A stretch of 64,000 bases of DNA from a virus (Duplodnaviria; Heunggongvirae; Uroviricota; Caudoviricetes): the IMG/VR virus record IMGVR_UViG_2718218131_000002; one strand, 5' to 3'. Both the position numbers and the translations under genes were made by a program. Positions 7,629 through 42,900 of the stretch are shown one piece after another; within the stretch, counting starts at the first letter, position 1, and the number at the start of each line of letters is the position of its first letter. The notes below the pieces were generated by a model. The model was not told the origin of the DNA and searched no databases. It saw only the letters and a list, made by a program, of their open reading frames with translations.

Positions 7629-7696
7629 GAGACCCGGCGGGGGAGTAATCTCCCGCCACCTCTGATGTGCCAGGCATCCTCAACGCACCCGCACTT

Positions 7697-19553: not shown

Positions 19554-19868
19554 ATGCTACATGATCACGTGGCAGAATGTCTGGAGAAAAAAGGACTGTA
19601 CCGGAGAGCAGCTGAACGATGGGCAAAAGTGATGGTACAGCTAAGTGATGACCAGAAAAGAAAAGTGGCGGCACAGAAACGAGCAGAGTGTTTGCGTAAG
19701 GCGCGCCGGACTCCGGTTTCACCGGTGAACCTGACCGAAATAAAACAAGCGGTCAACAGACTACATTCTGAGTTGGGAATGGGATTTGAAGAGCGGCGGG
19801 TATTCCGACGATATAAAGGGACAGGAGAACAGAATACGTCCGGAAACGCGCGGTCAAAAAAATGCTAA
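19554..19868 (+). CDS. PerC-family (Pch-like) transcriptional activator
   Basis: N-terminus LEKKGLYRRAAERWAKVM resembles the PerC/Pch signature; follows an AT-rich region after the lysis genes. Confidence 0.55.
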   Translation: MLHDHVAECLEKKGLYRRAAERWAKVMVQLSDDQKRKVAAQKRAECLRKARRTPVSPVNLTEIKQAVNRLHSELGMGFEERRVFRRYKGTGEQNTSGNARSKKC

Positions 19869-19949
19869 AAAATATCTGAGAGCGTTATTGCCTGTTACCA
19901 TAAGAAAAAGCGACTTTAGTGGTCGCTTTTTGTGTCATATATAAGTCGT

Positions 19950-20174
19950 TTAAGTAAACCTGTCTGAACAGGTGCTCTGGTCGTGTTTGTCTTTGTTGGG
20001 TACAAATTGAGCATGTTTTTCATTAATTAATCTTCTTCTGCAGGCTTCAATAACCCACGCTGAAAAATTACCTGAACCTTTCTGATCAAGAGCGATGTTA
20101 ATTTGTTCAATCATTTGGTTAGGAAAGCGGATGTTGCGGGTTGTTTTTCTGCGGGTTCTGTTCTTCGTTGACAT
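19950..20174 (-). CDS. Ribbon-helix-helix (Arc/CopG-like) small DNA-binding protein
   Basis: 74 aa; basic N-terminus then RFPNQMIEQINIAL...GSGNFSAWVIEACRRRL. Confidence 0.4.
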   Translation of the reverse strand: MSTKNRTRRKTTRNIRFPNQMIEQINIALDQKGSGNFSAWVIEACRRRLINEKHAQFVPNKDKHDQSTCSDRFT

Positions 20175-20344
20175 GAGGTTGCCCCGTATTCAGTGTCGCT
20201 GATTTGTATTGTCTGAAGTTGTTTTTACGTTAAGTTGATGCAGATCAATTAATACGATACCTGCGTCATAATTAATTATTTGACGTGGTTTGAACCGCCC
20301 CGGGAATCCTGGAGACTAAACTCCCTGAGAAAGAGGTAAACAGG

Positions 20345-20671
20345 ATGACTAAAAATACTCGTTTTTCCCCCGAAGTCCGTCAGAGGGCGATTCGTATGGT
20401 TCTGGAAAGTCAGGGCGAATATGACTCACAGTGGGCGGCAATTTGTTCCATTGCCCCAAAGATTGGCTGTACACCGGAGACTCTGCGTGTCTGGGTACGC
20501 CAGCATGAGCGGGATACCGGAGGCGGTGATGGCGGGCTCACCACCGCTGAACGTCAGCGTCTGAAAGAGCTGGAACGTGAAAATCGTGAACTGCGCCGCA
20601 GTAACGATATCCTTCGCCAGGCTTCCGCTTATTTTGCAAAGGCGGAGTTCGACCGCCTCTGGAAAAAGTGA
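20345..20671 (+). CDS. IS3-family transposase OrfA (108 aa)
   Basis: [55 protein letters not shown]. Confidence 0.85.
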
Positions 20672-21558
20672 TGCCACTGCTGGATAAGCTGCGTAAGCTG
20701 TACGGGGTCGGACCGGTATGCAGTGAACTACATATTGCCCCGTCAACGTATTACCACTGTCAGCAACAGCGACATCATCCTGATAAACGCAGTGCCCGTG
20801 CGCAGCGCGATGACTGGCTGAAGAAAGAGATACTGCGCGTATACGATGGGAATCATCAGGTATACGGTGTGCGTAAAGTCTGGCGTCAGTTGTTACGGGA
20901 AGGAATCAGGGTAGCCAGATGTACAGTGGCGCGCCTCATGGCGGTTATGGGACTTGCCGGTGTTCTCCGGGGTAAAAAGGTCCGCACTACCGTCAGCCGG
21001 AAAGCCGTTGCCGCAGGCGACCGCGTAAACCGTCAGTTTGTGGCAGAACGTCCTGACCAGTTGTGGGTGGCTGATTTTACTTACGTCAGCACATGGCAGG
21101 GGGGCGTCTATGTGGCGTTCATCATTGATGTGTTTGCCGGATACATCGTGGGGTGGCGGGTCTCATCGTCTATGGAAACGACATTCGTGCTGGATGCTCT
21201 GGAGCAGGCGTTATGGGCCCGTCGACCGTCCGGCACAGTCCATCACAGTGATAAAGGTTCTCAGTATGTATCGCTGGCCTACACACAGCGGCTTAAGGAA
21301 GCCGGATTACTGGCATCAACAGGAAGTACTGGTGACTCGTATGACAACGCGATGGCGGAGAGCATCAATGGCCTTTACAAAGCGGAGGTAATACACCGTA
21401 AGAGCTGGAAAAACCGGACAGAAGTGGAGCTGGCCACACTCACGTGGGTGGACTGGTATAACAATCGACGATTGCTGGAAAGGCTGGGCCATATCCCACC
21501 GGCAGAAGCAGAAAAAGCTTATTATGCTTCCATCGGAAACGATGATCTGGCAGCCTGA
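20668..21558 (+). CDS. IS3-family transposase OrfB (296 aa; DDE integrase core)
   Basis: Overlaps orfA in the -1 frame; DDE catalytic region. Confidence 0.85.
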
Positions 21559-21686
21559 GTTCACAGATAAAACACTCTCCAGGAAACCCGGGGCGGTTCA
21601 GTTTGATGGCGTAGATGCACGTTGTGACATGTAGATGATAATTATTATCATTTTGCGGGTCCTTTCCGGCGATCCGACAGGTTACG

Positions 21687-21698
21687 GGGCGGCGACCT
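21687..21698. other. cosN cohesive-end site of the prophage (lambda-type)
   Basis: GGGCGGCGACCT followed by CGCGGGTTTTCGCTATTTATGAAAATTTTCCGG, matching the lambda left end, about 180 bp upstream of Nu1. Confidence 0.75.
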
Positions 21699-21875
21699 CG
21701 CGGGTTTTCGCTATTTATGAAAATTTTCCGGTTTAAGGCATTTCCGTTCTTCTTCGTCGTAACTTAATGTTTTTATTTAAAATACCCCCTGAAAAGAAAG
21801 GAAACGACAGGTGCTGAAAACGAGCTTTTGGGCCTCTGTCGTTTCCTTTCTCTGTTTTTGGCCGTGGAATGAACA

Positions 21876-22395
21876 ATGGAAGTCAACAAAAAGCAGCTGG
21901 CTGACATTTTCGGTGCGAGTATCCGTACCATTCAGAACTGGCAGGAACAGGGAATGCCCGTTCTGCGAGGCGGTGGCAAGGGTAATGAGGTGCTTTATGA
22001 CTCTGCCGCCGTTATAAGATGGTATGCCGAAAGGGATGCTGAAATTGAGAACGAAAAGCTGCGCCGGGAAGTTGAAGAACTGCGGCAGGCCAGCGAGACA
22101 GATCTCCAGCCAGGGACTATTGAGTACGAACGCCATCGACTTACGCGTGCGCAGGCCGACGCACAGGAGCTGAAAAATGCCAGAGACTCCGCTGAAGTGG
22201 TGGAAACCGCATTCTGTACTTTCGTGCTGTCGCGGATCGCAGGTGAAATTGCCAGTATTCTCGACGGGATCCCCCTGTCGGTGCAGCGGCGTTTTCCGGA
22301 ACTGGAAAACCGACATGTTGATTTCCTGAAACGGGATATCATCAAAGCCATGAACAAAGCAGCCGCGCTGGATGAACTGATACCGGGGTTGCTGA

Positions 22396-22421
<26 letters not shown>
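21876..22421 (+). CDS. nu1: Terminase small subunit Nu1
   Basis: MEVNKKQLADIFGASIRTIQNWQEQGMPVLRGGGKGNEVLYD..., 181 aa, lambda Nu1. Confidence 0.9.
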
Positions 22422-26102
<3,681 letters not shown>

Positions 26103-26122
<20 letters not shown>

Positions 26123-27422
26123 TCTCCCGCATATTGCCAGCATGGCCTTTAATGAGCCGCTGATGCTTGAACCCGCCTATGCGCGGGTTTTCTTTTGTGC
26201 GCTTGCAGGCCAGCTTGGGATCAGCCGCCTGACGGATGCAGTATCCGGCGACAGCCTGACTGCCGGAGAGGCACCCGCGGCGCTGGCGTTATCCGGTGAT
26301 GATGACGGACCACGACAGGCCCGGAGTTATCAGGTCATGAACGGCATCGCCGTGCTGCCGGTGTCCGGTACGCTGGTCAGCCGGACGCGGGCGCTGCAGC
26401 CGTATTCGGGGATGACCGGTTACAACGGCATTATCGCCCGTCTGCAACAGGCTGCCAGCGACCCGATGGTGGACGGCATTCTGCTCGATATGGACACACC
26501 GGGCGGAATGGTGGCGGGAGCATTTGACTGCGCTGACATCATCGCCCGTGTGCGTGACATAAAGCCGGTATGGGCGCTGGCCAATGACATGAACTGCAGC
26601 GCAGGTCAGCTGCTTGCCAGTGCCGCCACCCGGCGTCTGGTCACGCAGACCGCCCGGACAGGCTCCATCGGCGTCATGATGGCTCACAGTAATTACGGCG
26701 CTGCACTGGAGAAACAGGGCGTGGAAATCACGCTGATTTACAGCGGCAGCCATAAGGTGGATGGCAACCCCTACAGCCATCTACCGGATGATGTCCGGGA
26801 AACACTGCAGTCCCGGATGGATGCAACCCGCCGGATGTTTGCACAGAAGGTGTCGGCATATACCGGCCTGTCCGTGCAGGCTGTGCTGGATACCGAGGCT
26901 GCAGTGTACAGCGGTCAGGAGGCCATTGATGCCGGACTGGCTGATGAACTTGTCAACAGCACCGATGCGATCACCGTCATGCGTGATGCACTGGATGCAC
27001 GTAAATCCCGTCTCTCAGGAGGGCGAATGACCAAAGAGACTCAATCAACAACTGTTTCAGCCACTGCTTCGCAGGATGACGTTACTGGCGTGGTGCCAGC
27101 GATGGAGGGCGAAAACGCCAGCGCGGCGCAGCCGGACGTGAACGCGCAGATCACCGCTGCGGTTGCGGCAGAAAACAGCCGCATTATGGGGATCCTCAAC
27201 TGTGAGGAGGCTCACGGACGCGAAGAACAGGCCCGCGTGCTGGCAGAAACCCCCGGTATGACCGTGGAAACGGCCCGCCGCATTCTGGCCGCAGCACCAC
27301 AGAGTGCACAGGCGCGCAGTGATACTGCGCTGGATCGTCTGATGCAGGGGGCACCGGCACCGCTGGCTGCAGGTAACCCGGCATCTGATGCCGTTAACGA
27401 TTTGCTGAACACACCAGTGTAA
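26103..27422 (+). CDS. C: Head maturation protease C (with the in-frame Nu3 scaffold region at its 3-prime end)
   Basis: GTG start at MTAELRNLPHIASMAFNEPLMLEPAYARVFF; 439 aa as in lambda C. Confidence 0.85.
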
Positions 27423-27431
27423 GGGATGTTT

Positions 27432-27764
27432 ATGACGAGCAAAGAAACCTTTACCCATTACCAGCCGCTGGGCAACAGTGACCCGGCTCATACCGCAACC
27501 GCGCCCGGCGGATTGAGTGCGAAAGCGTCTGCAATGACCCCGCTGATGCTGGACACCGCCACCCGTAAGCTGGTTGCGTGGGATGGCACCACCGACGGTG
27601 CTGCCGTTGGCATTCTTGCGGTTGCTGCTGACCAGACCAGCACCACGCTGACGTTCTACAAGTCCGGCACGTTCCGTTATGAGGATGTGCTCTGGCCGGA
27701 GGCTGCCAGCGACGAGACGAAAAAACGGACCGCGTTTGCCGGAACGGCAATCAGCATCGTTTAA
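27432..27764 (+). CDS. D: Head decoration protein D
   Basis: [27 protein letters not shown]...[10 protein letters not shown]. Confidence 0.9.
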
Positions 27765-27819
27765 CCTTACCCTTCATCACTAAAGGCCGCCTGTGCGGCT
27801 TTTTTTACGGGATTTTTTT

Positions 27820-28845
27820 ATGTCGATGTACACAACCGCCCAGCTGCTGGCGGCAAATGAGCAGAAATTTAAGTTTGATCCGCTGTTTCTGCGTCTCTTT
27901 TTCCGTGAGAGCTATCCCTTCACCACGGAGAAAGTCTATCTCTCACAAATTCCGGGACTGGTAAACATGGCGCTGTACGTTTCGCCGATTGTTTCCGGTG
28001 AGGTTATCCGTTCCCGTGGCGGCTCCACCTCTGAATTTACGCCGGGATATGTCAAGCCGAAGCATGAGGTGAATCCGCAGATGACCCTGCGTCGCCTGCC
28101 GGATGAAGATCCGCAGAATCTGGCGGACCCGGCTTACCGCCGCCGTCGCATCATCATGCAGAACATGCGTGACGAAGAGCTGGCCATTGCCCAGGTCGAA
28201 GAGATGCAGGCAGTTTCTGCCGTGCTTAAGGGCAAATACACCATGACCGGTGAAGCCTTTGATCCGGTTGAGGTGGATATGGGCCGCAGTGCGGCAAACA
28301 ACATCACACAGTCCGGTGGCACGGAGTGGAGCAAGCGTGACAAGTCCACGTATGACCCGACCGACGATATCGAAGCCTACGCGCTGAACGCCAGCGGCGT
28401 GGTGAATATCATCGTGTTTGATCCGAAAGGATGGGCGCTGTTCCGTTCCTTCAAAGCCGTCAGGGATAAGCTGGATACCCGTCGCGGCTCTCATTCCGAG
28501 CTGGAGACAGCGGTAAAAGACCTGGGCAAAGCGGTGTCTTATAAGGGAATGTATGGCGATGTGGCCATCGTCGTGTATTCCGGACAGTACGTGGAAAACG
28601 GCGTCAAAAAGAACTTCCTGCCGGACAACACGATGGTGCTGGGGAACACTCAGGCACGCGGTCTGCGTACCTATGGCTGTATTCAGGATGCGGACGCACA
28701 GCGCGAAGGCATTAACGCCTCTGCCCGTTACCCGAAAAACTGGGTGACTACCGGCGATCCGGCGCGAGAGTTCACCATGATTCAGTCAGCACCGCTGATG
28801 CTGCTGGCTGACCCTGATGAGTTCGTGTCCGTACAACTGGCGTAA
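27820..28845 (+). CDS. E: Major capsid protein E
   Basis: Starts MSMYTTAQLLAANEQKFKFDPLF; 341 aa. Confidence 0.9.
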   Translation: MSMYTTAQLLAANEQKFKFDPLFLRLFFRESYPFTTEKVYLSQIPGLVNMALYVSPIVSGEVIRSRGGSTSEFTPGYVKPKHEVNPQMTLRRLPDEDPQNLADPAYRRRRIIMQNMRDEELAIAQVEEMQAVSAVLKGKYTMTGEAFDPVEVDMGRSAANNITQSGGTEWSKRDKSTYDPTDDIEAYALNASGVVNIIVFDPKGWALFRSFKAVRDKLDTRRGSHSELETAVKDLGKAVSYKGMYGDVAIVVYSGQYVENGVKKNFLPDNTMVLGNTQARGLRTYGCIQDADAQREGINASARYPKNWVTTGDPAREFTMIQSAPLMLLADPDEFVSVQLA

Positions 28846-28886
28846 TCATGGCCCTTCGGGGCCATTGTTTCTCTGTGGAGGAGTCC

Positions 28887-28996
28887 ATGACGAAAGATGA
28901 ACTGATTGCCCGTCTCCGCTCGCTGGGTGAACAACTGAACCGTGATGTCAGCCTGACGGGGACGAAAGAAGAACTGGCGCTCCGTGTGGCAGAGCT
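28887..28996 (+). pseudogene. FI: DNA-packaging protein FI, 5-prime fragment (interrupted by an IS21-family element)
   Basis: MTKDELIARLRSLGEQLNRDVSLTGTKEELALRVAEL then reads into IS sequence. Confidence 0.7.
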
Positions 28997-29198
28997 TGCA
29001 AAATGGCATCTGAATCGATCGCAGTTTGGCATTCGAATCGATCATGATTTGGCATCCATCTCCGATCACAGTTTGGCATCACAATCGATCACGATTTGGC
29101 ATGCTTCCGATCATTGATTGGCATCCTGCCAGTCACTCCGGGAATTAACTCTTTTCACCACAGTCTCCATTGCCGTGTTTAAACCAGTGGAGACGTCA

Positions 29199-30764
29199 AT
29201 GTCCAGAAAGAGAAAATCCAGGAGCACTATGGAAACCTGTTTTAAGATTCTTCAGCTCAAGTTCGACAAGAAGCTGACTAACCGTTGTATCGGACTGACG
29301 TTACACATCAGCGCCTCAACCGTTTTTGAGGTTCTTGCCCGCTTCAAAGCCTCTTCTCTGTCATGGCCATTACCTGCTGATATATCCCATGACACGCTGG
29401 AGAAACTCATTTTTCCGCCCAAAGACACCTTTGCATCAGAGCTTGTAATGCCTGACATGTTGTACCTCGATACGGAAATGAGAAAACCAGGTGTGACGCG
29501 GCAACTGTTGTGGATGGAATACAAGGCACAGGCGGGTAACAAAGCGATGGGATACTCGCACTTCTGCCGTTGCTACCGGGAGTGGAAAAAAACGCGACGT
29601 CTCTCCATGCGCCAGGAGCATCGTGCCGGCGAAAAGCTTTTTATCGACTTCTGTGGTCCTACGGTTCCTGTTATTAATCCGGACACCGGTGAGATACGCC
29701 GCGTGGCAATCTTCGTGGCCGTAATGGGGGCGTCCAACTATACCTACGTTGAAGCGTGCGAAGGTCAGGACATGATGTCATGGTTAAATGCCCACAGCCG
29801 TTGCCTGACCTTCCTGGGCGGCGTACCGAAGCTGCTCATCCCCGATAACCTCAGAAGCGCAGTGAAAAAGGCCGATCGATATGAGCCTGTCATCAACGAC
29901 AGTTATCAGGCACTGGCTGAGCACTATGGCACGGTTATCATCCCGGCCCGACCACGCAAACCTAAAGATAAACCAAAAGCAGAAAACGGCGTCCTCATCG
30001 TCGAACGATGGCTTCTTGCCCGCATCCGTAATGAAACCTTCCACACGCTCAGGGCGCTGAATGCGCGCCTTAGGGAGTTACTGACAGACATGAATAACCG
30101 GCCAATGAAGGGGTACGGCAATCAAACCCGTGCAGAACGCTTCCGCATACTGGATGCGCCAGCACTCTCTCCGCTGCCTCTGGCACCTTATGAATACACG
30201 GAATACAAAGCTGTGAAGGTTGGCCCTGACTACCACGTTGAATATGCCCGTCACTGGTACTCCGTTCCACACGAACTGGTCGGTCAGCGTCTGTCACTGA
30301 AGGCGGGGCAGTCGGTGGTACAGCTCTGGCACAAGGGGCAGTGTGTGGCGCAACATCCGCGCAGCACACATGAATATAAACACACAACCAATCCGCTTCA
30401 CATGCCAGAGCGCCACCGGCAGCACGGGACATGGACACCGGAACGCCTGATCGAGCAGGGAAAACGTACGGGCCCGTCCACAGGCCGGGTGGTTGAATCC
30501 ATGCTGAAGGCAAAACCCCATCCGGAACTGGCTTATCGTGCAGTTCTGGGGCTGCTGGCACTTCAGAAAAAATACGGCCCGGAACGGCTGGAAAAGGCCT
30601 GTTACGTTGCCCTGCACTATAACGCCCCTGACAGACGCTTTATCGACAATCTGCTGCGTCACCATCGGGAGAACCTGGAGCTTCCATTATCCCGCCAGGG
30701 CGAACAACATCCGGCATATGCTTCAGAGCATGAAAACCTGCGTGGTCCGGGCTACTACCACTGA
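29199..30764 (+). CDS. istA: IS21-family transposase IstA
   Basis: Probable start MSRKRKSRSTMETCFKIL; N-terminal HTH and DDE core. Confidence 0.8.
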   Translation: MSRKRKSRSTMETCFKILQLKFDKKLTNRCIGLTLHISASTVFEVLARFKASSLSWPLPADISHDTLEKLIFPPKDTFASELVMPDMLYLDTEMRKPGVTRQLLWMEYKAQAGNKAMGYSHFCRCYREWKKTRRLSMRQEHRAGEKLFIDFCGPTVPVINPDTGEIRRVAIFVAVMGASNYTYVEACEGQDMMSWLNAHSRCLTFLGGVPKLLIPDNLRSAVKKADRYEPVINDSYQALAEHYGTVIIPARPRKPKDKPKAENGVLIVERWLLARIRNETFHTLRALNARLRELLTDMNNRPMKGYGNQTRAERFRILDAPALSPLPLAPYEYTEYKAVKVGPDYHVEYARHWYSVPHELVGQRLSLKAGQSVVQLWHKGQCVAQHPRSTHEYKHTTNPLHMPERHRQHGTWTPERLIEQGKRTGPSTGRVVESMLKAKPHPELAYRAVLGLLALQKKYGPERLEKACYVALHYNAPDRRFIDNLLRHHRENLELPLSRQGEQHPAYASEHENLRGPGYYH

Positions 30765-30780
30765 CAGAAGGAACAACAGT

Positions 30781-31536
30781 ATGAGTGATAACCTGTTAAA
30801 CAAACTGACCCAACTGAAACTCCCGGCGATGGCCGGGAGCCTGATACGGCAGCGGGAAACGCCTCAGACCTACGACGAACTGTCGTTCGAGGAAAGGCTG
30901 ACGCTGCTGGTTGATGACGAGCTTCTGAGCAGGGAAAACAGCCGTGTGGCACGGTTGAGAAAAAATGCCGGCCTGAAATACCAGGCAACACCGGAAGGGC
31001 TGCGCTATCCGGCCTCAAGAGGTCTGCGGGCTGAACAGATGAGAGAACTGCTGAACGGCCACTACATAACCCACAGGAAAAACCTGCTGATAACCGGTCC
31101 GACAGGATGTGGCAAGAGCTGGATAGCCAATGCGCTGGGCGAACAGGCATGTCGACAGAAACACAGCGTCCGGTACTGTAGAACCGGGCGATTACTGGAA
31201 CAACTGGCTCAGGGACGTGTTGATGGCAGCTGGCTGAAATATCTGAAACAGTTGCAAAAAATACAGGTTCTAATCCTGGACGATCTGGGGCTGGAACAGT
31301 TAAGTAACGCCCAGTGTAATGACCTTCTGGAGCTCATAGAGGATCGTTACGGACAAAGCAGCACGATAGTGGTAAGCCAGTTCCCGGTAGATAAATGGCA
31401 TGGTCTGATGGAGAACCCAACAACAGCAGATGCCATCCTGGACAGACTGGTACATAACTCACACCGGGTGGTCCTTCAGGGAGAGTCACTGAGGAAAAAT
31501 CCCCCGGTAGTGGAAAGCAGCGAAAAAACGCGTTAA
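30781..31536 (+). CDS. istB: IS21-family helper ATPase IstB
   Basis: Walker A GPTGCGKS and Walker B LILDDLG; 251 aa. Confidence 0.8.
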   Translation: MSDNLLNKLTQLKLPAMAGSLIRQRETPQTYDELSFEERLTLLVDDELLSRENSRVARLRKNAGLKYQATPEGLRYPASRGLRAEQMRELLNGHYITHRKNLLITGPTGCGKSWIANALGEQACRQKHSVRYCRTGRLLEQLAQGRVDGSWLKYLKQLQKIQVLILDDLGLEQLSNAQCNDLLELIEDRYGQSSTIVVSQFPVDKWHGLMENPTTADAILDRLVHNSHRVVLQGESLRKNPPVVESSEKTR

Positions 31537-31635
31537 AAAGCGGTAGAAAAAGTTAAGTTCCCGGTTGATCGAATGGATGCGAATCGCTGATCGGACTTCG
31601 ATGCCAATCCGTGATCGAATAGAGCGGAATACGCA

Positions 31636-31931
31636 CAGAGCTGGAAGAGGAGCTTGATGACACGGATGAAACTGCCGGTCAGGACACCCCTCTCAGCCGG
31701 GAAAATGTGCTGACCGGACATGAAAATGAGGTGGGATCAGCGCAGCCGGATACCGTGATTCTGGATACGTCTGAACTGGTCACGGTTGTGGCACTGGTGA
31801 CGCTGCATACCGATGCACTTCACGCCACGCGGGATGAACCTGTGGCATTTGTGCTGCCGGGAACGGCGTTCCGTGTCTCTGCCGGTGTGGCAGCCGAAAT
31901 GACAGAACGTGGCCTGGCCAGAATGCAATAA
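31636..31931 (+). pseudogene. FI: FI 3-prime fragment
   Basis: In-frame continuation LEEELDDTDETAGQDTPLSRENVLTGHENEVGSAQPDTVILDTSELV...ERGLARMQ matches the lambda FI C-terminus. Confidence 0.7.
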
Positions 31932-31942
31932 CGGGAGGCGCT

Positions 31943-32296
31943 GTGGCTGATTTCGATAACCTGTTCGATGCTGCCATTGCCCGCGCCGATGAAACGATAC
32001 GCGGGTACATGGGAACGTCAGCCACCATTACATCCGGTGAGCAGTCAGGTGCGGTGATACGTGGTGTTTTTGATGACCCTGAAAATATCAGCTATGCCGG
32101 ACAGGGCGTGCGCGTTGAAGGCTCCAGCCCGTCCCTGTTTGTCCGGACTGATGAGGTGCGGCAGCTGCGGCGCGGCGACACGCTGACCATCGGTGAGGAA
32201 AACTTCTGGATAGACCGGATTTCGCCGGATGATGGCGGAAGTTGTCATCTCTGGCTTGGGCGTGGTGTGCCGCCTGCCGTTAACCGTCGTCGCTGA
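31943..32296 (+). CDS. FII: Head completion protein FII
   Basis: MADFDNLFDAAIARADETIRGYMGTSATITSGEQ..., 117 aa. Confidence 0.9.
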   Translation: MADFDNLFDAAIARADETIRGYMGTSATITSGEQSGAVIRGVFDDPENISYAGQGVRVEGSSPSLFVRTDEVRQLRRGDTLTIGEENFWIDRISPDDGGSCHLWLGRGVPPAVNRRR

Positions 32297-32307
32297 AAGG
32301 GGGGTGT

Positions 32308-32883
32308 ATGGCCATAAAAGGTCTTGAGCAGGCCGTTGAAAACCTCAGCCGTATCAGCAAAACGGCGGTGCCTGGTGCGTCAGCAATGGCCATTAACCGC
32401 GTGGCCGCAACGGCGATTAATCAGTCTTCGTCTCAGGTCGCCCGTGAAACCCGGGTGCCGAGAAAACTGGTTAAAGAGCGATCCAGACTGAAACGAGCTA
32501 CGGTCAGAAATCCGAATGCAAAAATTATCGTTAACCGAGGTGATCTCCCTGCTATTAAGCTGGGGATCAGGATGCTTGGTCATCGCCCGAACAGCATACT
32601 CAAAGCCGGTCAGCATCGTTATCAGCGGGCATTCATCCAGCGATTAAATAATGGACGCTGGCATGTTATGCAACGTCTGCCAGAAGCACGGTATGCGAAG
32701 GGCAATGACGATAAGGGAAGGAAAAAGCGTAATCGTCTTCCCATTCAGGTGGTGAAAATTCCGATGGCGGTCCCACTGAAACAGGCTTTTGATGAGAACG
32801 TTAACCGTATCCGGCGAGAACGTCTGCCAAAAGAACTGAGCTATGCGCTGAAACAACAACTGAGGATTGTGATAAAGCGATGA
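32308..32883 (+). CDS. Z: Tail terminator / completion protein Z
   Basis: 191 aa, lambda Z-like. Confidence 0.85.
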   Translation: MAIKGLEQAVENLSRISKTAVPGASAMAINRVAATAINQSSSQVARETRVPRKLVKERSRLKRATVRNPNAKIIVNRGDLPAIKLGIRMLGHRPNSILKAGQHRYQRAFIQRLNNGRWHVMQRLPEARYAKGNDDKGRKKRNRLPIQVVKIPMAVPLKQAFDENVNRIRRERLPKELSYALKQQLRIVIKR

Positions 32884-33275
32884 AACATACTGAACTCCGT
32901 GCAGCCGTACTGGATGCACTGGAGAAGCATGACACCGGGGCGACGCTTTTTGATGGTCGCCCCGGTGTTTTTGATGAGGCGGATTTTCCGGCAGTTGCCG
33001 TTTATCTCACCGGCGCTGAATACACGGGCGAAGAGCTGGACAGCGATACCTGGCAGGCGGAGCTGCATATCGAAGTTTTCCTGCCTGCTCAGGTGCCGGA
33101 TTCAGAGCTGGATGCGTGGATGGAGTCCCGGATTTATCCGGTGATGAGCGATATCCCGGCACTGGCAGGACTGATTACCACGATGGTTACGCAGGGCTAT
33201 GAGTATCGTCGTGATGACGATATGGCGTTATGGAGTTCTGCAGATCTGACTTATTCCATTACATACGAGATGTGA
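32880..33275 (+). CDS. U: Tail tube terminator U
   Basis: [22 protein letters not shown]..., 131 aa. Confidence 0.85.
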
Positions 33276-33282
33276 GGACGAT

Positions 33283-34035
33283 ATGGCAACACCAAATCCC
33301 CTTGAGCCGGTAAAAGGTGCCGGTACCACTCTGTGGGTTTACAACGGCAAGGGTGATGCTTATGCAAACCCGTTGTCAGACGATGACTGGCAGCGACTGG
33401 CTAAGGTGAAGGATCTGACGCCGGGCGAGATGACGGCAGAACCCTACGATGATAACTACCTGGATGATGAAGACGCGGACTGGACCGCGACCGGGCAGGG
33501 GCAGAAGTCTGCAGGAGATACCAGTTTTACGCTGGCCTGGAAACCGGGAGAAGAAGGTCAGAAAGGGCTTATAGGCTGGTTTGAAAGCGGGGATGTGCGG
33601 GCCTATAAAATCCGTTTCCCAAATGGCACGGTGGATGTGTTCCGTGGCTGGGTCAGCAGTATCGGTAAGGCCGTGACGGCGAAAGAAGTGATCACCCGCA
33701 CGGTGAAAGTGACCAACGTGGGCAAACCTTCTGTAGCGGAAGAACGCAGCAAAATTACGCCGGTCACTGCGATTAAGGTGACGCCGACATCCGGTACGGT
33801 GGCAAAAGGGAAAACAACCACCCTGACGGTTTCTTTTGAGCCGGAAAGTGCAACCGACAAGACGTTCAGAGCGGTTTCCGCCGATCCGTCGAAAGCCACC
33901 ATTAGTGTGAAAGATATGACAATTACGGTAAACGGCGTGGCGACAGGTAAGGTGCAGATCCCTGTGGTGAGCGGAAATGGTCAGTTCGCCGCAGTGGCTG
34001 AAGTCACCGTTACTGAAGCGGGCGCTGCAGGGTAA
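33283..34035 (+). CDS. V: Major tail protein V
   Basis: 250 aa, lambda V-like with a C-terminal Ig-like region. Confidence 0.9.
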
Positions 34036-34048
34036 ACGGAGGTAATAC

Positions 34049-34471
34049 ATGTTTCTGAAAACAGAACAATTTGAATATAACGGTGTGTCCGTCACGCTTT
34101 CCGAATTGTCTGCGCTGCAGCGGTTTGATTATATAAAGTTTGTTTCAGACGCAGAACAACAGGAGACAACGAAGCATGATGTCGTGCACATTAACCAGCG
34201 ATATCTGGAAACGGCATCCCTGCTTGTGGCGATGTCGCTATGGCATTCCCATTCCCTCAAAGGCACTCTGGCCTCTCCGGAGACAGAGATGCAGCAGATC
34301 CGCCGTGAAGTGATGCTGGGATGGCCTGCTGATGCACTGAATCAGGCAACGAACCGGGTGCTTTATCTTTCAGGTATGCTGGATAACCGGCACGATGCCG
34401 ATCCTGAACAAACCGGGAAAGCAGAAGCGACTGAGCCGGTAACATCAAAAAAGCATTCGAAGGCGAGCTGA
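34049..34471 (+). CDS. G: Tail assembly chaperone G
   Basis: MFLKTEQFEYNGVSVTLSELSALQRF..., 140 aa. Confidence 0.85.
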   Translation: MFLKTEQFEYNGVSVTLSELSALQRFDYIKFVSDAEQQETTKHDVVHINQRYLETASLLVAMSLWHSHSLKGTLASPETEMQQIRREVMLGWPADALNQATNRVLYLSGMLDNRHDADPEQTGKAEATEPVTSKKHSKAS

Positions 34472-34911
34472 ACTTTGTCCTGAAACTGGCGCGAGAGATG
34501 GGGAGACCCGACTGGCGCGCCATGCTTGCCGGGATGACATCCACCGAATATGCCGACTGGCGACATTTTTACCGCACGCATTATTTTCAGGATACCCAAC
34601 TGGATATGCATTTTTCCGGGCTGATGTACGCTGTACTCAGCCTGTTTTTTTGCGATCCGGATATGCATCCCTCTGATTTCAGTCTGCTTGTCCCCCGGCA
34701 TGAGGAAGAGCAGGTGGAGAGGCTGGATGAGGACAAAATGCTGATGCAGAAAGCGGCAGGACTTGCCGGAGGCGTCCGGTTCGGTGGGGACGGAGGGGGC
34801 GATATTTTATCGTCTGCGGATGTGGCGGATGTCATGGTGGATGATGCCGCATTAATGATGGCTTCAGCGGGGATTCCAGGAGGTGTGAGATATGTCCCAG
34901 CCAGCGGGTGA
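34049..34911 (+). CDS. Tail assembly chaperone G-T fusion (via -1 frameshift at 34447-34453)
   Basis: T-frame ORF has no own start near the junction and extends to 34911 (T-like sequence MGRPDWRAMLAGMTSTEYADW...). Confidence 0.6.
34447..34453 (+). promoter_or_regulatory. Programmed -1 frameshift slippery heptamer A_AAA_AAG for G-T synthesis
   Basis: AAAAAAG is in register with G codons AAA AAG; the T frame is open only from 34435 and G stops at 34471. Confidence 0.5.
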
Positions 34912-37504
34912 TCTGGTTATTGATTTGAGTCTGGATGCGGCCCGGTTTGATGAACAGATGGCCCGGGTACGCCGTCATTTTTCCAGTCTGGAGGCGGATG
35001 CCAGAAAAACCGCCAGTACTGTTGAACAGGGGCTGAGCCGACAGGCGCTGGCTGCACAAAAAGCCGGGATATCAGTCGGACAGTATAAGGCTGCCATGCG
35101 CACACTGCCCGCACAGTTCACGGATATTGTCACTCAGCTTGCCGGTGGTCAGAATCCCTTCCTTATCATGCTGCAGCAGGGGGGGCAGATCAGCGATTCA
35201 TTCGGTGGACCGCTCAGCCTGCTTACCCTGCTGAAGGAGGAACTTCTCGGGATCAGGGATGCCTCTGAATCATCAGAGGAGTCGCTGTCAGATACGGCAA
35301 ATGCACTGGCTGAAAATGCCCGGAATGCCGGTGAGCTGGGACGATTTATGTCGGTGGCCCGTGTGGCGGCAGGTGGCGGGGTTGCCGTACTGGCCGCGCT
35401 TGCTGCCGCCGCCTGGCAGGCAGAGCAGGCTGACCGGGCCTTATTGCGTTCACTGATCCTGACCGGAGGGGCGGCTGCCACCACAACGGCAGAATTGTGG
35501 AAAATGGCCGGGGTGATCAGCGATGAAGCCGGTGGTGGTATCAGACAGGCGGCAGAAAATCTGGCCCGTCTGGCAGAAAGCGGGAAATATACCGCCGGGC
35601 AGCTACGGATCATGGGGGAAACCTCTCAGAGATGGCTGCAGACGGTGGGGGACGATGCCGGGAAGGTGGAAAAAGCCTTTGAAGGGATTGCAGCAGATCC
35701 GGTGAAGGCGCTGGCCTCCCTGAATCAGCAGTATAACTTCCTGAGCGTTTCCCAGTTACGCCATATTGATGAGCTTGAGCGCACGAAAGGTAAACAGGCT
35801 GCGGTGACGGAGGCGATGTCCCTGTTTGCGGATGTCATGAATGCACGTCTGGAGCAACTTGATAAAGCGGCCACGCCGGTGGAAAAAATCTGGGACGATG
35901 TTAAAACCTGGACTTCTGACGCATGGGCATGGATAGGTGATCATACACTGGGGGCACTCAGTCTGATCACTGACGTGGTGGCCGGAACCGTTGAACAGGT
36001 GAAGCTGCTGCTTGTGCAGGGGGATCTGGCGCTGGCTGAATTTATTCAGTCAGCCTGGGAAACGACAAAGAATGTGCCCGGCGTTGGTGCGTTGTTTGGT
36101 GAACTGGCAGAAGAGAACCGCGTATTTATTGAGAAAACAAAACGCGATGAACTGGCGCTGAGAAAATCCATTGCGGAACGGGATGCGCGTATACGCCAGG
36201 GGGAAATGGGGTACATCAACCGCTCGCGTGCAACAGGCGTCAGCAAAGGTCCTGGGCAGCAGGAAGCCGTCAGCCGTCTGGCTGAAGAGCTGACAGGTAA
36301 AAAGCATACATCACCGAAAACGCGCTCTGCCGGGGAGAGGGAAGAGGAGCAGGCAAGAGAGGCTCTGCTTGCCCTTGAAGCTGAGCTCAGGACGCTGGAA
36401 AAACACAGCGGTGCGAATGAGAAAATCAGTCGGCAGCGCCGTGATTTATGGAAGGCGGAAAGTCAGTATGCGGTCCTGAAAGAGGCTGCCACGAAACGGC
36501 AGTTATCCTGGCAGGAAAAATCCCTGCTGGCCCATGAGAAAGAGACGCTGGAGTACAAACGCCAGCTGGCTGACCTGGGCGACAAGGTTGAACACCAGAA
36601 ACGCCTGAATGAGCTGGCACAGCAGGCGGTGCGGTTTGAAGAGCAGCAGAGCGCGAAGCAGGCCGCCATCAGCGCAAAAGCCCGCGGTCTCACTGACCGT
36701 CAGGCGCAGCGGGAGTCTGAAGCGCAGCGTCTTCGGGACGTGTACGGTGATAATCCGCAGGCGCTGGCGAAGGCCACATCGGCACTGAAGAACACCTGGT
36801 CTGCGGAGGAGCAGCTTCGTGGAAGCTGGATGGCCGGGCTGAAGTCCGGCTGGGGCGAGTGGGCGGAAAGTGCGACGGACAGTTTTTCGCAGGTTAAAAG
36901 TGCTGCCACGCAGACCTTTGACGGTATTGCACAGAATATGGCGGCGATGCTGACCGGCAGTGAGCAGAACTGGCGCAGCTTCACCCGTTCCGTGCTGTCC
37001 ATGATGACAGAAATTCTGCTTAAGCAGGCAATGGTGGGGATAGTCGGGAGTATCGGCAGCGCCATTGGCGGGGCTGTTGGTGGCGGCGCATCCGCGTCAG
37101 GCGGTACAGCCATTCAGGCTGCGGCGGCGAACTTCCATTTCGCGACCGGGGGATTTACGGGAACCGGCGGCAAATATGAGCCAGCGGGGATTGTTCACCG
37201 TGGTGAATTTGTCTTCACGAAGGAGGCAACCAGCCGGATTGGTGTCGGCAACCTGTACCGCCTGATGCGGGGCTATGCGGAAGGTGGTTATGTGGGCGGT
37301 GCCGGAAGTCCGGCGCAGATGCGGCGGGCTGAAGGCATTAATTTTAATCAGAACAATCACGTGGTGATTCAGAACGACGGTACGAATGGTCTGCCAGGTC
37401 CACAGATGATGAAGGCAGTGTATGACATGGCCCGCAAGGGTGCCCGTGATGAAATCCAGGCACAGATGCGCGATGGTGGCCTGTTCTCCGGAGGTGGACG
37501 ATGA
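34892..37504 (+). CDS. H: Tail tape measure protein H
   Basis: 870 aa, coiled-coil rich, lambda H-like. Confidence 0.9.
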   Translation: MSQPAGDLVIDLSLDAARFDEQMARVRRHFSSLEADARKTASTVEQGLSRQALAAQKAGISVGQYKAAMRTLPAQFTDIVTQLAGGQNPFLIMLQQGGQISDSFGGPLSLLTLLKEELLGIRDASESSEESLSDTANALAENARNAGELGRFMSVARVAAGGGVAVLAALAAAAWQAEQADRALLRSLILTGGAAATTTAELWKMAGVISDEAGGGIRQAAENLARLAESGKYTAGQLRIMGETSQRWLQTVGDDAGKVEKAFEGIAADPVKALASLNQQYNFLSVSQLRHIDELERTKGKQAAVTEAMSLFADVMNARLEQLDKAATPVEKIWDDVKTWTSDAWAWIGDHTLGALSLITDVVAGTVEQVKLLLVQGDLALAEFIQSAWETTKNVPGVGALFGELAEENRVFIEKTKRDELALRKSIAERDARIRQGEMGYINRSRATGVSKGPGQQEAVSRLAEELTGKKHTSPKTRSAGEREEEQAREALLALEAELRTLEKHSGANEKISRQRRDLWKAESQYAVLKEAATKRQLSWQEKSLLAHEKETLEYKRQLADLGDKVEHQKRLNELAQQAVRFEEQQSAKQAAISAKARGLTDRQAQRESEAQRLRDVYGDNPQALAKATSALKNTWSAEEQLRGSWMAGLKSGWGEWAESATDSFSQVKSAATQTFDGIAQNMAAMLTGSEQNWRSFTRSVLSMMTEILLKQAMVGIVGSIGSAIGGAVGGGASASGGTAIQAAAANFHFATGGFTGTGGKYEPAGIVHRGEFVFTKEATSRIGVGNLYRLMRGYAEGGYVGGAGSPAQMRRAEGINFNQNNHVVIQNDGTNGLPGPQMMKAVYDMARKGARDEIQAQMRDGGLFSGGGR

Positions 37505-37830
37505 AAACCTTCCGCTGGAAAGTGAAACCCGGTATGGATGTGGCTTCGGCCCCTTCTGTAAGAAAGGTGCGCTTTGGTGATGGCTATTCCCAGCGAGCGC
37601 CTGCCGGGCTGAATGCCAACCTGAAAACGTACAGCGTGACGCTGTCTGTCTCCCGTGAGGAGGCCACGGCGCTGGAGTCGTTTCTGGCTGAGCACGGGGG
37701 CTGGAAGGCCTTTCTGTGGACGCCGCCTTATGGTTACAGGCAGATAAAGGTGACCTGCGCAAAATGGTCGTCGCGGGTCAGTATGCTGCGTGTTGAGTTC
37801 AGCGCAGAGTTTGAACAGGTGGTGAACTGA
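37501..37830 (+). CDS. M: Tail tip protein M
   Basis: MKTFRWKVKPGMDVASAPSVRKVRFGDGYSQRAPAG..., 109 aa. Confidence 0.9.
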   Translation: MKTFRWKVKPGMDVASAPSVRKVRFGDGYSQRAPAGLNANLKTYSVTLSVSREEATALESFLAEHGGWKAFLWTPPYGYRQIKVTCAKWSSRVSMLRVEFSAEFEQVVN

Positions 37831-38528
37831 TGCAGGATATCCGGCAGGAAACATTGAATGAATGCACCCGTGCGGAGCAGTCGGCCAGCGTGGTGCTCTG
37901 GGAAATCGATCTGACAGAGGTCGGTGGAGAACGTTATTTTTTCTGTAATGAGCAGAACGAAAAAGGTGAGCCGGTCACCTGGCAGGGGAGGCAGTATCAG
38001 GCGTATCCCATTCAGGGGAGCGGTTTTGAACTGAATGGCAAAGGCACCAGTACGCGCCCCACGCTGACGGTTTCTAACCTGTACGGTATGGTCACCGGGA
38101 TGGCGGAAGATCTGCAGAGTCTGGTCGGCGGAACGGTGGTCCGGCGTAAGGTTTACGCCCGTTTTCTGGATGCGGTGAACTTCGTCAACGGAAACAGTGA
38201 CGCCGATCCGGAGCAGGAGGTGATCAGCCGCTGGCGCATCGAGCAGTGCAGCGAACTGAGCGCAGTCAGTGCCTCTTTTGTACTGGCCACGCCGACGGAA
38301 ACGGATGGCGCTGTTTTTCCGGGACGTACCATGCTGGCCAACACCTGCACCTGGACCTATCGCGGTGATGAGTGCGGTTATAACGGTCCGGCTGTCGCGG
38401 ATGAATATGACCAGCCGACGTCCGATATAACGAAGGATAAATGCAGCAAATGCCTGAGCGGCTGTAAGTTCCGCAATAACGTCGGCAACTTTGGCGGTTT
38501 CCTTTCCATTAACAAACTTTCGCAGTAA
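37830..38528 (+). CDS. L: Tail tip protein L
   Basis: 232 aa, lambda L-like. Confidence 0.9.
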   Translation: MQDIRQETLNECTRAEQSASVVLWEIDLTEVGGERYFFCNEQNEKGEPVTWQGRQYQAYPIQGSGFELNGKGTSTRPTLTVSNLYGMVTGMAEDLQSLVGGTVVRRKVYARFLDAVNFVNGNSDADPEQEVISRWRIEQCSELSAVSASFVLATPTETDGAVFPGRTMLANTCTWTYRGDECGYNGPAVADEYDQPTSDITKDKCSKCLSGCKFRNNVGNFGGFLSINKLSQ

Positions 38529-38532
38529 TCCC

Positions 38533-39276
38533 ATGACAGAGACAGAATCAGCGATTCTGGCGCACGCCCGGCGATGTGCGCCAGCGGAGTCGTGCGGCTT
38601 CGTGGTGAGAACGCCGGAGGGGGAAAGCTATTTTCCCTGCGTGAATATTTCCGGTGAGCCGGAGGATTATTTCCGGATGGCTCCGGAGGACTGGCTGCAG
38701 GCAGAAATGCAGGGTGAGATTGTGGCGCTGGTCCACAGCCACCCCAGTGGTCTGCCCTGGCTGAGTGAGGCTGACCGGCGGCTGCAGGTGCAGAGTGATT
38801 TGCCGTGGTGGCTGGTCTGCCGGGGGGCGATTCATAAGTTCCGCTGTGTGCCGCATCTCACCGGGCGGCGCTTTGAGCACGGGGTGACGGACTGTTACGC
38901 GCTGTTCCGGGACGCTTATCATCTGGCGGGGACTGAACTGCCGGATTTTCACCGGGAGGATGACTGGTGGCGTCACGGTCAGAATCTCTATCTTGACAAT
39001 ATGGAGGCGACGGGTTTTTACCGTGTCGCACTGACAGAGGCGCAGCCTGGCGATGTGCTGCTGTGCTGTTTTGGTTCATCGGTGCCGAATCATGCCGCCA
39101 TTTACTGTGGTGACGGCGAGCTGCTGCACCATATTCCTGAACAACTGAGCAAACGAGAGAGGTATACCGACAAATGGCAGCGACGCACACACTCCCTCTG
39201 GCGTCACCGGGCATGGCGCGCATCTGCCTTTACGGGGATTTGCAACGATTTGGCCGCCGCATCGACCTTCGTGTGA
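38533..39276 (+). CDS. K: Tail assembly protein K (JAB/MPN + NlpC/P60-like)
   Basis: MTETESAILAHARRCAPAESCGFVV...HSHP motif; lambda annotates a shorter 199-aa form starting at 38677. Confidence 0.8.
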   Translation: MTETESAILAHARRCAPAESCGFVVRTPEGESYFPCVNISGEPEDYFRMAPEDWLQAEMQGEIVALVHSHPSGLPWLSEADRRLQVQSDLPWWLVCRGAIHKFRCVPHLTGRRFEHGVTDCYALFRDAYHLAGTELPDFHREDDWWRHGQNLYLDNMEATGFYRVALTEAQPGDVLLCCFGSSVPNHAAIYCGDGELLHHIPEQLSKRERYTDKWQRRTHSLWRHRAWRASAFTGICNDLAAASTFV

Positions 39277-39845
39277 AAACGGGGGCTGAAGCCATCCGCG
39301 CACTGGCCACACAGCTCCCGGCGTTTCGTCAGAAACTGAGCGACGGCTGGTATCAGGTACGGATTGCCGGGCGGGACGTCAGCACGTCCGGGTTAACGGC
39401 GCAGTTACATGAGACTCTGCCTGACGGCGCTGTGATTCATATTGTTCCCAGAGTCGCCGGGGCCAAGCCAGGGGGCGTATTCCAGATTGTTCTGGGGGCT
39501 GCCGCCATTGCCGGATCATTCTTTACTGCCGGAGCCACCCTTGCAGCATGGGGGGCAGCCATTGGGGCCGGTGGTATGACCGGTATCCTGTTTTCTCTCG
39601 GTGCCAGTATGGTGCTCGGTGGTGTGGCGCAGATGCTGGCACCGAAAGCCAGGACGCCCACGGCAGCAAGTACAGATAACGGCAAACAGAACACCTATTT
39701 CTCCTCACTGGATAACATGGTTGCCCAGGGCAATGTTCTGCCGGTTCTGTACGGTGAAATGCGCGTGGGGTCACGCGTGGTTTCTCAGGAGATCAGCACG
39801 GCAGACGAAGGGGATGGTGGTCAGGTTGTGGTGATTGGTCGCTGA
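39174..39845 (+). CDS. I: Tail assembly protein I
   Basis: MAATHTLPLASPGMARICLYGDLQRFGRRIDL..., 223 aa; overlaps the end of K. Confidence 0.85.
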   Translation: MAATHTLPLASPGMARICLYGDLQRFGRRIDLRVKTGAEAIRALATQLPAFRQKLSDGWYQVRIAGRDVSTSGLTAQLHETLPDGAVIHIVPRVAGAKPGGVFQIVLGAAAIAGSFFTAGATLAAWGAAIGAGGMTGILFSLGASMVLGGVAQMLAPKARTPTAASTDNGKQNTYFSSLDNMVAQGNVLPVLYGEMRVGSRVVSQEISTADEGDGGQVVVIGR

Positions 39846-39905
39846 TGAAAAACGTTTTATGTGAAACCGCCTGCGGGCGGTTTTGTCGTATATGGAGCAT
39901 GACGA

Positions 39906-42900
39906 ATGGGTAAAGGCAGCAGTAAGGGGCATACCCCGCGTGAAGCGAAGGACAACCTGAAATCAACGCAGTTGCTGAGTGTGATTGATGCCATTAGTGA
40001 AGGCCCGATTGAAGGTCCGGTGGATGGCTTAAAAAGCGTGCTGCTGAACAGTACGCCGGTGCTGGACAGTGAGGGGAATACCAACATCTCCGGCGTCACG
40101 GTGGTGTTCCGGGCAGGTGAGCAGGAGCAGACTCCGCCGGAGGGGTTTGAATCCTCCGGCTCCGAGACGGTGCTGGGTACGGAAGTGAAATATGACACGC
40201 CGATCACCCGCACCATCACGTCGGCAAACATCGACCGACTGCGCTTTACCTTCGGTGTGCAGGCACTGGTGGAAACCACCTCAAAGGGGGACCGGAATCC
40301 GTCGGAAGTTCGCCTGCTGGTTCAGATACAGCGTAATGGTGGCTGGGTGACGGAAAAAGACATCACCATTAAGGGCAAAACCACCTCGCAGTATCTGGCC
40401 TCGGTGGTGGTGGATAACCTGCCGCCGCGCCCGTTTAATATCCGGATGCGCAGGATGACGCCGGACAGCACCACAGACCAGCTGCAGAACAAAACGCTCT
40501 GGTCGTCATACACCGAAATTATCGATGTGAAACAGTGCTACCCGAACACGGCACTGGTCGGCGTGCAGGTGGACTCGGAGCAGTTCGGCAGCCAGCAGGT
40601 GAGCCGTAATTATCATCTGCGCGGGCGCATTCTGCAGGTGCCGTCGAACTATAACCCGCAGACGCGACAATACAGCGGTATCTGGGACGGAACGTTTAAG
40701 CCAGCATACAGCAACAACATGGCCTGGTGTCTGTGGGATATGCTGACCCACCCGCGCTACGGCATGGGGAAACGTCTTGGTGCGGCGGACGTGGATAAAT
40801 GGGCGCTGTATGTCATCGGCCAGTACTGCGACCAGTCGGTGCCGGATGGTTTTGGCGGCACGGAGCCGCGCATCACCTGTAATGCCTGGCTGACCACACA
40901 GCGTAAGGCGTGGGATGTTCTCAGCGATTTCTGCTCGGCGATGCGCTGTATGCCGGTATGGAACGGGCAGACGCTGACGTTCGTGCAGGACCGACCGTCG
41001 GATAAGGTGTGGACCTATAACCGCAGTAATGTGGTGATGCCGGATGATGGCGCGCCGTTCCGCTACAGCTTCAGCGCCCTGAAGGACCGCCATAATGCCG
41101 TTGAGGTGAACTGGATTGACCCGGATAACGGCTGGGAGACGGCGACAGAGCTTGTGGAGGACACGCAGGCCATTGCCCGTTACGGTCGTAACGTCACGAA
41201 GATGGATGCCTTTGGCTGTACCAGCCGGGGGCAGGCGCACCGCGCCGGGCTGTGGCTGATTAAAACAGAACTGCTGGAAACGCAGACCGTGGACTTCAGC
41301 GTGGGCGCAGAAGGGCTTCGCCATGTACCGGGTGATGTTATTGAAATCTGCGATGATGACTATGCCGGTATCAGCACCGGTGGGCGCGTGCTGGCGGTGA
41401 ACAGCCGGACCCGGACGCTGACGCTCGACCGTGAAATCACGCTGCCATCCTCCGGCACCACGCTGATAAGCCTGGTTGACGGAAGTGGCAATCCGGTCAG
41501 CGTGGAGGTTCAGTCCGTCACCGACGGCGTGAAGGTGAAAGTGAGCCGTGTTCCTGACGGCGTTGCTGAATACAGCGTGTGGGGGCTGAAGCTGCCGACG
41601 CTGCGCCAGCGCCTGTTCCGCTGCGTGAGTATCCGTGAGAACGACGACGGCACGTATGCCATCACCGCCGTGCAGCATGTACCGGAAAAAGAGGCCATCG
41701 TGGATAACGGGGCGCACTTTGACGGCGACCAGAGCGGCACGGTGAATGGTGTCACGCCGCCAGCGGTGCAGCACCTGACCGCCGAAGTCACCGCAGACAG
41801 CGGGGAATATCAGGTGCTGGCGCGCTGGGACACGCCGAAGGTGGTGAAGGGCGTGAGCTTCCTGCTCCGTCTGACCGTAACAGCGGATGACGGCAGTGAG
41901 CGGCTGGTCAGCACGGCCCGGACGACGGAAACCACATACCGCTTCAGGCAACTGGCGCTGGGGCGTTACACGCTGACGGTCCGGGCGGTAAATGCGTGGG
42001 GACAGCAGGGCGATCCGGCATCGGTATCGTTCCGGATTGCCGCCCCGGCAGCGCCGTCGCGGATTGAGCTGACGCCGGGCTATTTTCAGATAACTGCCAC
42101 GCCGCATCTTGCGGTTTATGATCCGACGGTACAGTTTGAGTTCTGGTTCTCGGAAACGCGGATTGCCGATATCAGGCAGGTTGAAACCACAGCCCGCTAC
42201 CTCGGCACGGGGCTGTACTGGATAGCCGCCAGTATCAATATTAAGCCGGGCCATGATTATTATTTTTACGTTCGCAGTGTGAACACCGTTGGCAAATCGG
42301 CATTCGTGGAGGCTGTTGGTCAGCCGAGTGATGATGCATCCGGCTATCTGGATTTTTTCAAAGGCGAGATAGGGAAAACCCATCTGGCTCAGGAGCTGTG
42401 GACGCAGATTGATAACGGTCAGCTTGCGCCTGACCTGGCTGAAATCAGGACGTCCATTACGGATGTCAGCAATGAAATCACGCAGACCGTCAATAAGAAA
42501 CTGGAAGACCAGAGTGCGGCAATTCAGCAGATACAGAAGGTTCAGGTTGATACCAGTAATAACCTGAACAGCATGTGGGCTGTGAAGCTGCAGCAGATGC
42601 AGGACGGACGCCTTTATATCGCGGGTATTGGTGCCGGTATTGAGAACACCCCTGACGGCATGCAGAGTCAGGTGCTGCTGGCGGCGGACAGGATTGCGAT
42701 GGTTAATCCTGCGAATGGCAACACAAAACCGATGTTTGTTGGTCAGGGCGATCAGATATTCATGAACGACGTGTTCCTGAAACGCCTGACGGCCCCCACC
42801 ATTACCAGTGGCGGTAATCCTCCGGCATTTTCCCTGACACCAGACGGAAAGCTGACCGCTAAAAATGCAGATATCAGTGGCAGTGTGAATGCGAACGCCG

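Follow-up and report, generated by a model that had tools for sequence, protein, structure and literature searches.

The stretch analysed here, 64,000 nucleotides of the Caudoviricetes record IMGVR_UViG_2718218131_000002 and hereafter the window, contains a lambda-like prophage whose DNA-packaging gene FI is divided in two by an insertion sequence (IS) of the IS21 family. FI lies between the major capsid gene E (27793-28845) and the head-tail joining gene FII (31943-32296), and both of its parts remain recognizable on either side of the element. Below we describe the interrupted gene and the element, compare the locus with an empty site in a sister prophage, and weigh what the insertion might mean for packaging of the phage genome.

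The interrupted FI gene and its IS21-family element

FI starts at the ATG at position 28887 and reads MTKDELIARLRSLGEQLNRDVSLTGTKEELALRVAEL before it runs into unrelated sequence. The frame resumes at codon 37 (CTG, Leu; 31641) and continues to a TAA stop codon at 31929-31931. The 5' fragment on the plus strand (28887-28996) comprises codons 1-36 and the first two bases of codon 37, and is 100% identical both to lambda FI nucleotides 1-110 and to the corresponding positions of the sister prophage (31112-31221 of the extracted sister locus, L001). The 3' fragment (31643-31931, plus strand) runs from the last base of codon 37 to codon 132 and the stop, and is likewise 100% identical to the sister gene. 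Joining 28887-28996 to 31643-31931 restores an open reading frame (ORF) of 399 nucleotides, or 132 codons plus the stop. A preliminary description of this DNA had let the second piece begin at 31636, a bookkeeping slip in an otherwise sound claim that the fragments reconstitute FI; that join (28887-28996 plus 31636-31931) was rejected, as it counts the target site twice and produces 406 nucleotides out of frame. The correctly rejoined protein is identical to lambda gpFI at 130/132 residues, the two differences being K38E and K90T. In a megablast comparison against phage records, the pieces fall on the annotated Fi gene of lambda (J02459 7202-7600) with 98.3% identity. The Pfam family PF14000 (Packaging_FI) is likewise found in two parts, with profile positions 1-37 in the 5' piece (E = 3e-15) and 36-131 in the 3' piece (E = 4e-38).

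The element that separates these fragments occupies 28997-31635 on the plus strand, in the same orientation as the phage late operon, and is complete at 2,639 bp. Scripted boundary analysis of the window placed its first bases at TGCAAAATGG and its last bases at GAATACGCA, with the 5'-TG...CA-3' ends. On both sides lies the 7-bp target duplication CAGAGCT, whose two copies, at 28990-28996 on the left and 31636-31642 on the right, match perfectly. In a scripted flank comparison the match between the flanks ended at exactly 7 bp, for which the chance expectation is approximately 6e-5 for a fixed pair of positions. The two central observations of the preliminary description, an FI frame split by a 2.64-kb istA/istB element and a flanking 7-bp CAGAGCT duplication, are thus borne out at these coordinates.

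Together, the element and one copy of the duplication add 2,646 bp, or 3 x 882, to the gene, which leaves the 5' and 3' parts of FI in the same absolute frame. Despite this shared frame there is no read-through between them, because the IS contains in-frame stops. Translation from the FI start is terminated by the TGA at 29115-29117, and the resulting FI' fusion ORF in the ORF list (28887-29117, plus strand) encodes 76 amino acids, 37 of them from FI and 39 from the left end of the IS. The 3' fragment contains the linker and the entire C-terminal head-binding domain (residues 72-132, limits taken from the sequence match to PDB 2LSM). Since the solved domain spans residues 72-132, the break after residue 37 cuts the N-terminal segment off from the linker and from the whole of the C-terminal domain. 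An intact two-domain FI ORF is therefore not present, the gene being split after codon 37 and closed by the stop at 29115-29117. The FI allele of this prophage is insertionally inactivated and is not a functional member of PF14000.

Two co-oriented genes fill most of the element. The first, istA (29229-30764, plus strand), encodes a 511-amino-acid DDE transposase, its start codon being chosen to follow the PGAP annotation of identical copies (WP_023181050.1). It scores 285.8 bits against the NCBIfam equivalog model NF033546 (cut-off 160) and 72 bits against the Pfam domain Mu-transpos_C_2, the C-terminal barrel of Mu-type transposases; the rve domain is borderline, at 32.1 bits against a gathering score of 32.6. 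The second gene, istB (30781-31536, plus strand), encodes a 251-amino-acid AAA+ helper ATPase that matches PF01695 (1e-60, 205.7 bits) and the equivalog NF038214 (257.8 bits, cut-off 200) and retains both the Walker A (GPTGCGKS) and Walker B (LILDD) motifs. Both proteins also match the structurally characterized proteins of IS5376 in phmmer searches, IstA with E = 3e-14 (PDB 8b4h/8q4d) and IstB with E = 4e-24.

The ends of the element carry multiple repeats. At the left end (28997-29125, plus strand), the terminal TGCAAAATGGCAT is followed by five direct 16-nucleotide repeats, GATCN5-6TTGGCAT, located at 29017-29124 with a spacing of 22-24 bp. The right end (31577-31635, minus strand) contains two inverted copies of the repeat (31577-31592 and 31601-31616) and the ...ACGCA terminus. 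Elsewhere in the window, the repeat scan returned only one loose match, GATCTCGCCTTGCAT at 56670-56684. Target-site duplications in the IS21 family measure 4-8 bp, and with its istA-istB pair, TG...CA termini, end repeats approximately 23 bp apart and short duplication, the element has the defining features of that family. In IS21 itself, IstA-binding direct repeats are found at a 23-bp spacing (PMC10122671). The architecture is thus shared with IS21 and IS5376 (PDB 8b4h, 8q4d, 8q3w, 5bq5), from the gene pair encoding a DDE transposase and an AAA+ helper to the termini and the repeat spacing. In contrast, the sequence relationship to these elements is distant, and the element studied here is longer, with five left-end repeats as opposed to two in prototypical members such as IS5376.

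Other copies of the element and an empty site in a sister prophage

The element is not confined to this prophage. Among the matches listed, at least 25 chromosomal and plasmid copies from E. coli are 100% identical to it over positions 1-2639, and a near-full-length copy is present in 225 of 5,426 E. coli genomes. In RefSeq, the identical copies are labelled 'IS21 family transposase' (the IstA protein) and 'IS21-like element ISSso4 family helper ATPase IstB' (WP_001282653.1). In published work, ISSso4 is mentioned as an IS found in Shigella sonnei and on E. coli plasmids, pCT among them. We retrieved nine other copies with their flanks and aligned the junctions. In all nine, conservation is limited to precisely the span delimited here, from the first to the last base of the element, and the flanks are unrelated to each other. 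Eight of the nine are bordered by target duplications, of 7 bp in three cases and 6 bp in five, and the remaining copy has none. Because other copies show 6-7 bp, a 7-bp duplication is normal for this element, whereas the duplications of IS5376 measure 5 bp (PMC10122671). The presence of identical copies at many distinct chromosomal and plasmid sites, most with their own duplication, suggests that the element is active in transposition. Compared with these ISSso4-group elements, the copy in FI has the same nucleotide sequence over all 2,639 bp, the same ends and the same range of duplications; it differs only in its insertion site, and among the searched genomes no other copy was located in FI.

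Two independent copies, at loci L005 and L009, lie in unrelated genes (encoding a TPR protein and a DUF932 protein, respectively), and both are flanked by GTATCC as a 6-bp duplication, a possible hint that the element has a weak target preference.

A direct view of the locus before insertion is provided by closely related strains. Over the host flank (window positions 47000-64000), the chicken isolates PK8241 and Z1323CEC0005/0006 match the window at 100% identity, and in Z1323CEC0006 (NZ_CP148466.1) the same prophage adjoins potB and carries an intact FI of 399 bp. A BLAST comparison of the window with this locus yielded two collinear blocks, covering window positions 17537-28996 and 31636-45435, with 99.0-99.6% identity to the sister on either side of the insertion. 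Since the two blocks overlap by 7 bp in the sister (L001 31215-31221), CAGAGCT is present there as a single copy, as would be expected of an empty target site. The rejoined FI is identical to the sister gene at 399/399 nucleotides and 132/132 amino acids, and the two departures from lambda gpFI, K38E and K90T, are common to the intact sister allele. Neither half of the interrupted gene has acquired a mutation relative to the sister.

The insertion itself was not found in 5,426 complete E. coli genomes when a 4.6-kb query consisting of the element and 1-kb flanks was used, no place being covered by more than 57%. A 30-nucleotide pattern spanning the left junction returned nothing from GTDB species representatives or metagenome contigs, and exact-protein look-ups of the 76- and 89-amino-acid FI' fusion ORFs gave no match. 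Because the FI halves are unmutated and the exact insertion is absent from the searched genomes, the event is recent and strain-specific. The sister strains already have the IS at other chromosomal places, and the insertion was probably intragenomic. The IS and FI are both known and have practically identical counterparts in the databases; the novelty lies in the site alone.

Probable consequences for packaging and competing explanations

Taking these observations together, we propose that a full-length, apparently active ISSso4-group IS21 element recently transposed into codon 37 of FI, that gpFI was thereby lost in cis, and that, without FI from elsewhere acting in trans, the prophage's own packaging would be strongly reduced. 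We assign this reading a probability of approximately 0.93. The recipient of the element would have been a lambda-like, espK-carrying prophage beside potB, in an E. coli strain close to the chicken isolates Z1323CEC0005/0006 and PK8241. By analogy to established IS21 biology, the DDE transposase IstA would bind the multi-repeat ends and cleave at the terminal CA. Acting with the AAA+ ATPase IstB, it would introduce staggered cuts into the target, and the repair of these cuts would give rise to the CAGAGCT duplication. From the interrupted gene, only the 76-amino-acid product, consisting of the 37-residue N-terminal segment and 39 IS-derived residues, would then be made, and the linker and C-terminal domain would be left without a start codon. 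Since these parts are cut off from the FI start, the prophage is predicted to be unable to supply functional gpFI. Its own DNA packaging would be strongly reduced as long as FI is not supplied in trans, and the genes from FII through J would still be expressed.

In lambda, gpFI has been described as essential for packaging in vivo and as linking the capsid to the complex of terminase and DNA (PMC13595911). The suggestion in the preliminary description that the head pathway is likely impaired is reasonable in this light. The loss of cis-encoded gpFI is almost certain. The extent to which this loss matters is something we infer, and the prophage is probably packaging-defective in cis.

An effect of the insertion on downstream genes is unlikely. 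No plus-strand terminator-like site was found inside the IS. The window contains a Q-type gene at 11711-12277, late transcription in lambdoid phages is Q-antiterminated, and FII is preceded by a GGGAGG Shine-Dalgarno sequence of its own and starts with GTG at 31943. Since the IS is inserted in the sense orientation, lacks such a terminator-like site and lies in a region likely to be transcribed under Q-antitermination, and since FII has its own translation signals, polarity on FII through J is improbable and the downstream genes should still be transcribed and expressed. From Nu1 through J, the remaining ORFs for head and tail proteins match the sister annotation in length once the earlier starts chosen by the ORF finder are allowed for. 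A crude scan for sigma-70-like promoters in 28700-32100 found none, which is weak evidence against an outward promoter in the IS that could drive the FI 3' fragment.

Several considerations weigh against the proposed reading, in particular against its functional part. The structure of the insertion is uncontradicted, while the functional consequence is what we infer from it. The name ISSso4 is provisional, in that it follows the RefSeq annotation of identical copies and not the ISfinder type sequence. Translation from an internal GTG at 31707 (FI codon 59) might at best give a putative C-terminal fragment of 74 amino acids. In lambda, the requirement for FI can be bypassed by suppressor (fin) mutations in terminase and capsid genes (PMC13595911). 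FI is present in 3,210 of the 5,426 E. coli genomes, and the sister strains harbour two to four copies each, located in other lambdoid prophages. Given that gpFI is diffusible and that the sister strains have these additional copies, trans-complementation by sibling lambdoid prophages is plausible if they are co-induced. Finally, the other IS elements and the differing early region indicate that the prophage may already have been defective, in which case the loss of FI would be inconsequential.

The last two points form the core of an alternative in which the insertion is real and has no functional effect, either because the prophage had already lost its function or because siblings provide gpFI in trans. 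We regard this alternative as possible, though rather doubtful. It is favoured by an ISApl1 copy within the tail-fibre C-terminal gene (codons 2-4), by an IS3-family element between the lysis genes and cos, and by an early region of the window (approximately 3.5-10 kb) that has no counterpart in the sister prophage, as well as by the number of FI copies per chromosome in the sister strains. However, the IS3-family element is also present in the sister genomes and has damaged neither cos nor Nu1, and the remaining head and tail ORFs are full length. Moreover, the FI counts of the sister strains may not hold for the present strain, which is represented by a single 64-kb window, and trans-complementation depends on co-induction.

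It is also conceivable that the prophage has been selectively 'grounded': its espK/espO cargo and tail-producing late operon would be retained and its own packaging blocked, for example to the benefit of a neighbouring capsid-encoding island that resembles a phage-inducible chromosomal island (PICI). The intact tail genes Z to J, the effector genes at the right end of the prophage and the adjacent island, with its own E-like capsid protein, D-like decoration protein, Nu1-like small terminase and lambda-type cosN, are all compatible with such a scenario. Yet the event is confined to this strain, with nothing to suggest that it is old or has spread, a single insertion cannot show selection, and the tail-fibre gene is also interrupted, by ISApl1. 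We therefore consider selective retention very unlikely. We attach equally little credence to the more specific idea that the FI::IS prophage, blocked in its own packaging yet still producing Q-driven late transcripts and every tail protein, acts as a non-competing tail donor for the PICI-like island approximately 5 kb past its right end, with istAB transcribed from the late promoter so that expression of the IS would be coupled to induction. Least probable of all is an assembly artefact that misplaced a repeated IS into FI: the element is multi-copy in related genomes, repeats are the usual source of mis-joins and the insertion occurs in no other searched genome, but a mis-join would not leave a single-copy target perfectly duplicated over 7 bp right at the TG...CA ends, and this length is also found for the duplications at other copies of the same IS.

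Transposition into FI, with loss of gpFI in cis, thus adds one further case to a familiar process. Compared with lambda, the gene is almost unchanged once the IS is removed and keeps its place between E and FII; the difference is the split after codon 37. IS-mediated decay of lambdoid prophages is known from pathogenic E. coli, for example from IS629 in O157:H7 prophages. As in those cases, mobile elements here have entered structural or regulatory genes of a lambdoid prophage of the kind that carries effectors or toxins. Three different IS elements are present in this prophage. Unlike in those cases, the elements include ISSso4 and ISApl1, and the gene that was hit is a strain-specific target. 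That prophages decay through IS insertions in their morphogenesis genes is familiar, and the present case is ordinary and known in kind. FI in the window is best recorded as a pseudogene disrupted by a mobile element. As a marker, the insertion is clean, recent and strain-specific, and it could be of use in strain typing or in tracing ISSso4 activity in the chicken-associated lineage. With ISSso4, ISApl1 and an IS3-family element in a single effector-carrying prophage, the locus also exemplifies the ongoing and well-known decay of prophages driven by IS elements.

Further features of the prophage and the neighbouring island

The ISApl1 copy (IS30 family, approximately 1.07 kb) is located at 45436-46511, with an ORF at 45501-46502 that matches NF033563 (3e-92), and shares 99.8% identity with plasmid copies. 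It interrupts the prophage tail-fibre C-terminal gene close to its start, at approximately codons 2-4. The sister (L001 45010-45279) lacks this copy, which is a second strain-specific IS insertion in the same prophage. ISApl1 is an element associated with mcr-1. The IS3-family element spans approximately 20290-21605 between the lysis genes and cos, with ORFs at 20345-20671 and 20668-21558 and a programmed frameshift in the sister annotation. It is shared with the sister genomes and spares both cosN (GGGCGGCGACCT, at 21687) and Nu1 (at 21876).

Two segments of the prophage are missing from the sister. The first, at approximately 3500-10000, has a low GC content (33-43%) and encodes a methyltransferase (5369-6028, minus strand) and a protein with HTH and M78 peptidase domains (8422-9528); it may be cargo, or it may have taken the place of the replication module. 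The second, at 13949-16540, contains three tRNA genes (Met-CAT, Arg-TCG and Arg-TCT) followed by a gene for a 617-amino-acid DUF1737/SASA esterase that is NanS-p-like. This layout is typical of the region between Q and the lysis genes in Stx phages, and no stx ORF lies between the tRNAs and the esterase. At the right end of the prophage, beside potB, the type III effector gene espK is found on the minus strand (47222-48583), where the sister annotation also lists espO. The damaged prophage is therefore an effector carrier.

Beside pepT, a separate island begins at approximately 53800 and runs off the end of the window at 64000. It encodes an integrase (53803-55053), a D5-type primase/helicase (57804-59636) and an SSB (60166-60588), followed by a lambda-E-like major capsid protein (60720-61847), a gpD-like decoration protein (61857-62198), AlpA (62210-62593) and a Nu1-like small terminase (62783-63337). 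A second lambda-type cosQ/cosN is present at approximately 62615-62680, where cosN is 100% identical to that of the prophage and the cosB side is divergent. Judged by its gene content, the island looks like a capsid-forming PICI, and in its relatives a large terminase and a portal protein are annotated further on.

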